A program made the translations under genes and the position numbers. Shown here piece after piece: positions 1,997-2,207 of a stretch of DNA of 64,000 nucleotides; positions within the stretch are counted from its first letter, which is position 1; every line of letters starts with the position of its first letter. A model generated the notes under the pieces. The model had not been told where the DNA came from and ran no database searches. It worked only from the letters and a program-made list of their open reading frames with translations. Source of the stretch: Octopus vulgaris (lineage: Eukaryota); NCBI GenBank assembly GCA_951406725.2, contig OX597835.1:2604001-2668000 (forward strand), written 5' to 3'.

Positions 1997-2207
1997 TGAC
2001 AAGATTAAGAGAAATGTACGGACGTGTTTTGAAGATTACTGTGGCGCCACCATAAAACCATTAAACCATCCATGCTGCTCAGCTAAGAAGCGTTGTAAAT
2101 GCATACCTTTTAAGGGCTGCCGTTGTAGTTCTCAGAATATGATCCATGTGGCTAATAACGGTATACTCCAAACTGTGATAGTTTTTCTGATTTTTTTTTT
2201 AAATTAA
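1997..2207 (+). CDS. Terminal coding exon of agatoxin-like cystine-knot peptide gene A
   Basis: Acceptor ttctgtatttacag, identical to that of exon 14605. Phase-2 frame reads DKIKR-NVRTCFEDYCGATIKPLNHPCCSAKKRCKCIPFKGCRCSSQNMIHVANNGILQTVIVFLIFFLN*, i.e. C-x4-C-x10-CC-x5-CxC-x5-CxC after a KR site. Confidence 0.85.

Follow-up and report, generated by a model that had tools for sequence, protein, structure and literature searches.

A candidate glycosylphosphatidylinositol-attachment tail on a knottin-type precursor from a diversified octopus gene family

The sequence considered here, below called the window, is a stretch of 64,000 nucleotides from Octopus vulgaris that contains the last coding exon of one small gene for a cysteine-rich peptide (gene A) and exons 1-3 of another (gene B). 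Other loci are given as coordinates on contigs C22, C2 and C4 of the species' own genome (G000). Positions 1997-2207 form the last of the three coding exons of gene A, with the frame open from 1998 (Table 1). As read from the sequence, the exons join into one open frame for a precursor of 111 residues, in which a signal-like hydrophobic N-terminus is followed by a pro-region, a KR dibasic site, an eight-cysteine knot and a tail of 26 residues. The best 11-residue hydropathy mean of the N-terminus is 2.54, and the signal peptide is called by inspection and not by SignalP. Over all 111 residues the precursor is 60% identical to the RefSeq protein P0001 of O. bimaculoides. The cysteines are spaced as C-x4-C-x10-CC-x5-C-x-C-x5-C-x-C (2025-2126), and an aromatic residue, the F of IPFKG, lies between C6 and C7. 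The elements that a sequence-only reading had listed behind the last cysteine, namely SS, the spacer QNMIHVANNG, a terminal hydrophobic run, a T10 homopolymer and a GT at 2161, are all present. Kyte-Doolittle hydropathy of the terminal run reaches a best mean of 2.81 over 11 residues and of 1.77 over 19 residues.

The tail resembles an attachment signal for glycosylphosphatidylinositol (GPI). In the available parts of PMC2571997 and PMC7125958, such signals are described as a small residue at the omega site and another at omega+2, followed by a spacer that extends to about omega+9 and then by a hydrophobic end, with 20-30 residues in total; the available text of PMC7125958 gives about 20 residues for the hydrophobic stretch, and that of PMC2571997 includes, as a loose feature, about 11 unstructured residues that serve as a linker ahead of omega. 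The candidate omega sites of gene A, S86, S87 and N89, leave 25, 24 and 22 residues, respectively, all within this range, and with S87 as omega the hydrophobic run begins at omega+11 and reaches the end. An omega candidate passes our rule in 37 of the 49 copies described below, 34 have a small omega+2, and 34 of 39 tails have no K or R in the last eight residues. We propose, with a probability of about 0.55, that the tail is a GPI-attachment signal and that the knot would be shown on the cell surface as one among dozens of variable modules. Tethering as such, by GPI or by a membrane helix, is quite probable.

Several properties weigh against a GPI signal. The residue at omega+2 is Q for S86, N for S87 and I for N89, and not G, A or S; the hydrophobic stretch has 13 residues as opposed to about 20 in the available text of PMC7125958. 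Part of the spacer is hydrophobic, and the knot ends 1-4 residues ahead of omega, with no unstructured linker between them. Ly6 proteins likewise have little linker before omega. The call was made with a loose rule of our own and not with a trained GPI predictor. Further points would also suit an uncleaved single-pass membrane helix without a cytosolic part, which would tether the knot by protein and not by GPI: the best mean hydropathy over 19 residues, which is 1.77 for gene A and rises to 2.8 among paralogues; a 20-residue helix that AlphaFold places at residues 49-68 of the exon product as the part of highest confidence; and four copies at 3.27-3.36 Mb that have RK directly after a shortened hydrophobic stretch. 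In the available part of PMC3849787, CKAMP44 is noted as a cysteine-rich modulator tethered in this manner. We hold such a helix to be unlikely, though the least so of the alternatives, since those 34 of 39 tails carry no basic residue near the end, the helix of gene A runs to the very end, and the tail lengths cluster at 26-35 residues with small residues just past the knot, as GPI signals require.

If the tail is a GPI signal, the signal peptide would carry the gene A precursor into the endoplasmic reticulum, and a transamidase would cut after S87 (or S86 or N89) and replace the 22-25 residue tail by GPI. With the pro-region cut off at KR by a convertase, about 40 residues of knot would remain near the membrane. 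Between the invariant cysteines, the loops might diversify to bind differing extracellular partners, and soluble members would arise from older tail-less lineages, such as gene B, and by secondary deletion of the tail.

Gene A belongs to a large family. The counts come from searches of the own genome and are lower bounds; they comprise 49 intact knot exons defined by our own pattern, after removal of two regular-expression matches that are not knottins (C22:2493629 and window position 50595). Forty-eight of these exons lie on C22, in clusters near 1.25, 2.42-2.75, 3.35-3.39, 7.55-7.73 and 15.9-16.04 Mb. The remaining one, L089 on C2 (G000:C2:126342195-126342350), ends in W-G-G-stop and is likely, by this ending, an ordinary single exon of a CCWamide neuropeptide. 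Beyond the 49, about ten further open-frame variants and several broken fragments are found, and the signal exon has 36 DNA matches, 35 of them on C22.

A hydrophobic tail of 26-39 residues (11-residue hydropathy >= 1.8) ends 39 of the 49 intact knot exons, and gene A has its signal exon upstream of the window; the GPI-signal-like tail first noticed in gene A is a conserved feature of these knottin precursors. A search with intron DNA, made to avoid finding tailed copies only, gave 33 matches, three of them broken, and 26 of the remaining 30 are tailed. Three of the four tail-less copies, L119, L137 and L138, have no tail DNA, their knot being joined to sequence that lies ~360 bases further down in gene A, which suggests a secondary deletion of the tail. 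All three retain intact knots; L119 lies on another chromosome (G000:C4:141454655 onward) with its own signal exon, and L137 and L138 have lysine-rich ends.

The tail is also kept in relatives, contrary to the concern that orthologues might stop right after the knot: among close RefSeq proteins of O. bimaculoides, which are gene models, 8 of 9 end in a hydrophobic tail. A tenth, P0011, which has the second tail type described below, ends in a polar extension and counts against the GPI reading. The relatives in O. bimaculoides (P0001-4 and P0006-11; LOC128250510-LOC128250541) and O. sinensis (P0012; LOC115223109) are all named 'uncharacterized' and have no precomputed Pfam domain. A HMMER search of 1.84 billion sequences gave 6 matches, to Octopus proteins only. 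Word-index searches gave 4, 8 and 2 matches, again only in Octopus; short peptides are poorly annotated, and one of these searches missed known CCWamides. In the open literature, which leaves aside most subscription journals, nothing was found on this family or on natural knottins with a GPI anchor. The family is not mentioned in the available parts of PMC11288129, PMC10138644, PMC9068888 and bioRxiv 2022.06.11.495763, and the supplements of PMC9712504 gave 0 matches (3 files, one scanned file unread). The octopus expansion is real and apparently undescribed.

The eight cysteines are invariant in 45 of 45 aligned knots, and the C-C-CC-C-C spacing with an extra C6-C7 pair is that of an inhibitor cystine knot (ICK). 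Eighteen of the 45 members match Pfam Toxin_9 (PF02819) at E<=1, the best at 5.3e-06; the product of the window exon and the knot alone each match 0 Pfam families. The nearest solved sequence is purotoxin-1 (E=0.0035). Two structure models are of low confidence (predicted local distance difference test scores, pLDDT, of 59.5 and 62.2), which weighs against the proposed reading. Foldseek found no match at E<=0.001 for either model, the rows for the knot alone being four small cysteine-rich peptides at E 5-10, and VIA-align found none at Z>=2. A knottin fold is predicted from cysteine spacing and weak profile matches, and the structure models did not confirm it. For P0001, the best feature score in the ESM Atlas was 0.83, a lead only; the structure matches there were MutS helices and were rejected.

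A conserved signal together with a hypervariable mature part is a pattern of venom and defence peptide families. The conserved signal exon and flanks of this family, its hypervariable mature part, the spider toxins among the nearest solved sequences and the existence of tail-less members with intact knots would fit a tail that is a C-terminal propeptide or sorting handle removed without anchoring, or an anchor shed at once, with a soluble toxin-like or antimicrobial knottin as the product. We rate this as improbable: gene A has no dibasic or other evident convertase site between knot and tail, and plain propeptides seldom end in a hydrophobic run.

Chance alone produces such tails at a low rate. 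Among 187,262 random non-repetitive starts in the region, 0.76% open a frame of 24-39 codons that ends in a comparably hydrophobic stretch, and 0.58% satisfy our omega rule as well. A single tail of this kind is unusual yet possible by chance; its presence across the family exceeds chance, because it recurs in 39 of 49 exons and because a second, unrelated tail type exists. The second type (L083, L036, L070, L092-L105) repeats this layout in DNA that shows no likeness to that of the first (z -1.9 to 2.3), so that either the tail was gained twice or selection acts on its character and not on its sequence. A tree of the knot only (45 rows, 40 columns) did not resolve a single versus a repeated origin of the main tail.

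The evidence for selection on the tail is modest and mixed. The frequency of T in the tail core is 0.86 at codon position 2, compared with 0.23 at position 1 and 0.47 at position 3, and none of 26 retained tails has a premature stop. Internal gaps in 24 aligned tails are of 3 and 6 bases only, compared with gaps that are not multiples of three in 7 of 10 cases in the intron and 7 of 12 in the untranslated region (UTR), a comparison biased by the choice of copies with an in-frame tail. In a neutral simulation (26 copies, 103 changes, 3000 runs) the absence of stops, high hydropathy and few polar residues occur jointly in 0.2% of runs, a statistic combined after the fact and with deleted tails excluded. 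Taken singly, these statistics reach only P 0.055 (no stop), 0.11 (hydropathy) and 0.087 (few polar); the identity of the tail (0.75) is like that of the intron (0.77) and the UTR (0.74); its ratio of nonsynonymous to synonymous differences (pN/pS) is 1.1-1.7, and codon tests find no purifying selection on it; and the substitution classes fit the neutral expectation (21 hydrophobic-to-hydrophobic versus 15 to other). The intron read in frame is also hydrophobic. Because signal-type peptides tolerate such sequence change, these tests neither prove nor exclude a function of the tail. The knot is the fast-changing part of the gene: pN/pS is 1.69 and 1.55 in two clusters (pairs not independent), and when gene A is compared with L005, identity is 75% for the knot, as opposed to 99% for the intron and 100% for the tail.

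The length of the T-run, which the sequence-only reading feared might change the tail, does not alter the frame. Paralogues read TTT TTT GTA where the window has TTT TTT TTA, so the T10 is a one-letter change in an unaltered frame. L005 has the same T10 and the same stop as the window, and in both, the 12 in-frame bases that most paralogues carry ahead of the stop are missing. Positions 2169-2249 are spanned by a contig of run X3 that differs at 1 letter and has 0 gaps; the kind of X3 is unrecorded, it covers introns, and its contig across the T10 may derive from the L005 copy instead of gene A. A sequencing slip in the T10 was rejected in view of the paralogue frame, the identical run in L005 and the gap-free contig. 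No RNA source is listed for 1960-2560, and no transcript of gene A was seen in the six presumed RNA runs compared, out of 19: X1 and X2 give no cover over 1755-2274, and X8, X9, X14 and X19 give nothing on 1750-2335 at 80% likeness. None of these results carries weight on expression.

The GT at 2161 is without the donor consensus at +4/+5. After removal of one non-homologous row out of 30, it is found at this place in 16 of 29 homologous tails and is missing from 13, and 22 of the 29 have another GT, at 2175. Two predicted proteins nevertheless weigh against a constant tail. P0005 (source label O. vulgaris) splices at 2161 to gene B exon 2. It chains exons from several paralogues, has truncated knots and an unrelated end, and omits the signal exon that belongs to gene B and is present in P0012; as a real transcript it was rejected as likely chimeric, though not disproved. 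The O. bimaculoides isoform P0010 departs from the tail after ILQT, and the G000 counterpart has a strong donor there, so some members may have tail-less splice forms.

Of the alternatives, the least probable is that the tail is a functionless passenger of recent duplication, either an ancestral read-through of a 3' UTR rich in T or a segment that splicing normally removes. In favour of this, the tail is no more conserved than intron or UTR, pN/pS is near or above 1, the in-frame intron is hydrophobic too, P0005 and P0010 splice inside the tail, and 4 of 30 copies are tail-less, three of them evidently by deletion. Against it, two unrelated tail types share one layout, T prevails at codon position 2, all 26 retained tails are free of premature stops, 13 of 29 copies have no GT at the place of 2161, and P0005 has the defects just described.

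Gene B had been put forward as a soluble paralogue paired with gene A. It is a real, tail-less gene, and its product is predicted to be soluble. Compared with P0012, 40 of 41 knot residues and 15 of 15 residues of the polar end are identical, and P0012 is its orthologue. The pairing did not stand: in the knot tree gene B is nearest to L063, 13 Mb away, and not to gene A, which is one of dozens, and a role of gene B as a dedicated partner was rejected on both counts.

Table 1. Features of genes A and B; plain positions refer to the window.
Feature	Position	Strand	Basis
Gene A exon 1 (signal peptide, phase 1), upstream of window	G000:C22:2602022-2602085		
Gene A exon 2 (pro-region), upstream of window	G000:C22:2602752-2602812		
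Splice acceptor AG, gene A last coding exon (phase 2)	1995..1996	+	sequence
KR dibasic site, likely convertase cut before knot	2007..2012	+	sequence; recurs in many paralogues; cleavage predicted
Eight-cysteine knottin-type domain, hypervariable between cysteines	2025..2126	+	cysteine spacing, Toxin_9 matches in family
SS after last cysteine	2127-2132	+	sequence
Candidate omega sites S86, S87 (best fit), N89	2127..2138	+	rule scan, criteria of PMC2571997 and PMC7125958 (available parts)
Mixed-polarity spacer QNMIHVANNG, containing weak GT at 2161	2133..2162	+	sequence
Terminal hydrophobic stretch ILQTVIVFLIFFLN (13 residues plus N), no basic residue after	2163..2204	+	hydropathy, modelled helix
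T10 homopolymer	2191-2200	+	sequence
Stop codon TAA	2205..2207	+	most paralogues have 12 extra in-frame bases (LPSY) before stop
Gene B exon 1 (own signal peptide)	7968..8040	+	matches O. sinensis RefSeq P0012
Gene B exon 2 (pro-region)	10683..10740	+	P0012
Gene B exon 3, eight-cysteine knot and 15-residue polar end	14605..14788	+	sequence, P0012

The closest lineage to gene A is that of the CCWamide/agatoxin-like peptide (ALP) neuropeptides, and not a venom toxin. According to the available parts of PMC8557429, their signal is encoded in the first coding exon and the mature peptide in the last of usually three exons; the receptor and function of CCWamide are given as undetermined in the available parts of PMC13311285 and PMC8557429. 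As far as these sources go, gene A shares with them the signal peptide, a non-conserved pro-region, a dibasic site, three coding exons with the mature peptide last, eight cysteines and the aromatic residue between C6 and C7. The last intron is in phase 2 in gene A, as in the C2 CCWamide exon, and L065 groups with C2 CCWamide in the knot tree (support 90/95). The differences are as clear. CCWamide/ALP peptides have an amidated aromatic C-terminus where gene A has a 26-residue hydrophobic tail (26-39 in the family), and they do not form about fifty hypervariable copies as the octopus family does; in arthropods and several spiralians, their cleavage site is described as split by the last intron, whereas exon 3 of gene A contains the complete KR. 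Gene A is likely a derived paralogue of these neuropeptides and not a member, because the amidated end is missing.

Among tethered proteins, the lynx1/Ly6 prototoxins are similar to gene A in having a small cysteine-rich toxin-like domain, a signal peptide and a GPI-type end right after the last cysteine (PMC3849787, available part). They differ by a three-finger domain of 10 cysteines, as opposed to eight cysteines with knottin spacing and many fast-diverging copies, and the LU family is absent among the Pfam matches of the 45 members. Engineered tethered toxins, in which a conotoxin or spider toxin is placed on the lynx1 GPI signal, combine signal peptide, knottin and GPI signal as gene A would (PMC3849787, available part); gene A differs in being endogenous and natural, and hardly any linker would separate its knot from the anchor. 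The spider ICK toxins purotoxin-1 (2kgu), U4-agatoxin-Ao1a (2n6n) and agelenin (2e2s) have the cysteine spacing of the gene A family; they are soluble venom peptides, and their matches to the octopus family are near noise for cysteine-rich peptides.

Given tethering, we judge it somewhat likelier that the knots recognise a variety of external ligands, such as microbes, gametes or other cells, than that they tune a conserved channel in cis in the manner of lynx, since a moving target is better matched by dozens of copies whose loops diversify. The neural reading stays alive because of the likely neuropeptide origin. We speculate, as an unlikely scenario, that an octopus neuropeptide gave rise, possibly twice, to about forty tethered knottins with alternative last exons and tail-less versions, among which cells would choose to tune their own ion channels or receptors or to mark their identity. 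If this holds, the library would parallel in nature the engineered tethered toxins and would be an octopus gene-family expansion not reported before. Re-use of the scaffold as a tethered, diversified repertoire would reveal how a secreted neuropeptide can become a surface protein. The family would be a large addition to the octopus gene inventory, with dozens of natural peptides whose anchor and partners are testable.

At C22:3383966-3391918 and 15910647-15916299, one detected signal exon is followed by three knot exons in each case. In O. bimaculoides, the loci of P0004/P0009 and P0007/P0010 have isoforms with different knot exons. Alternative last exons possibly multiply the knottin repertoire. 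Within G000:C22:2461498-2602095, 8 copies share a signal exon region of 91 bases at 100% identity, and 3 more match it at 99%; the copies alternate in orientation, and the knots of the closest ones are 60-83% identical to that of gene A in DNA. Three tailed copies at 7.68-7.69 Mb of C22 (L135, L140, L141) have 10-11 cysteines and a CCC run, which makes an altered disulfide framework.

Downstream of gene A, a unit of ~58 bases is repeated in tandem at 2629-2787, with a copy number that differs among paralogues. Elsewhere in the window, two open frames on the plus strand at 22032-23167 are presumably the endonuclease part of a long interspersed element (LINE) retrotransposon, and the fragments at 27037-27735 (minus strand) and 51810-52229 (plus strand) are what we take to be mariner-type transposase-like sequences.
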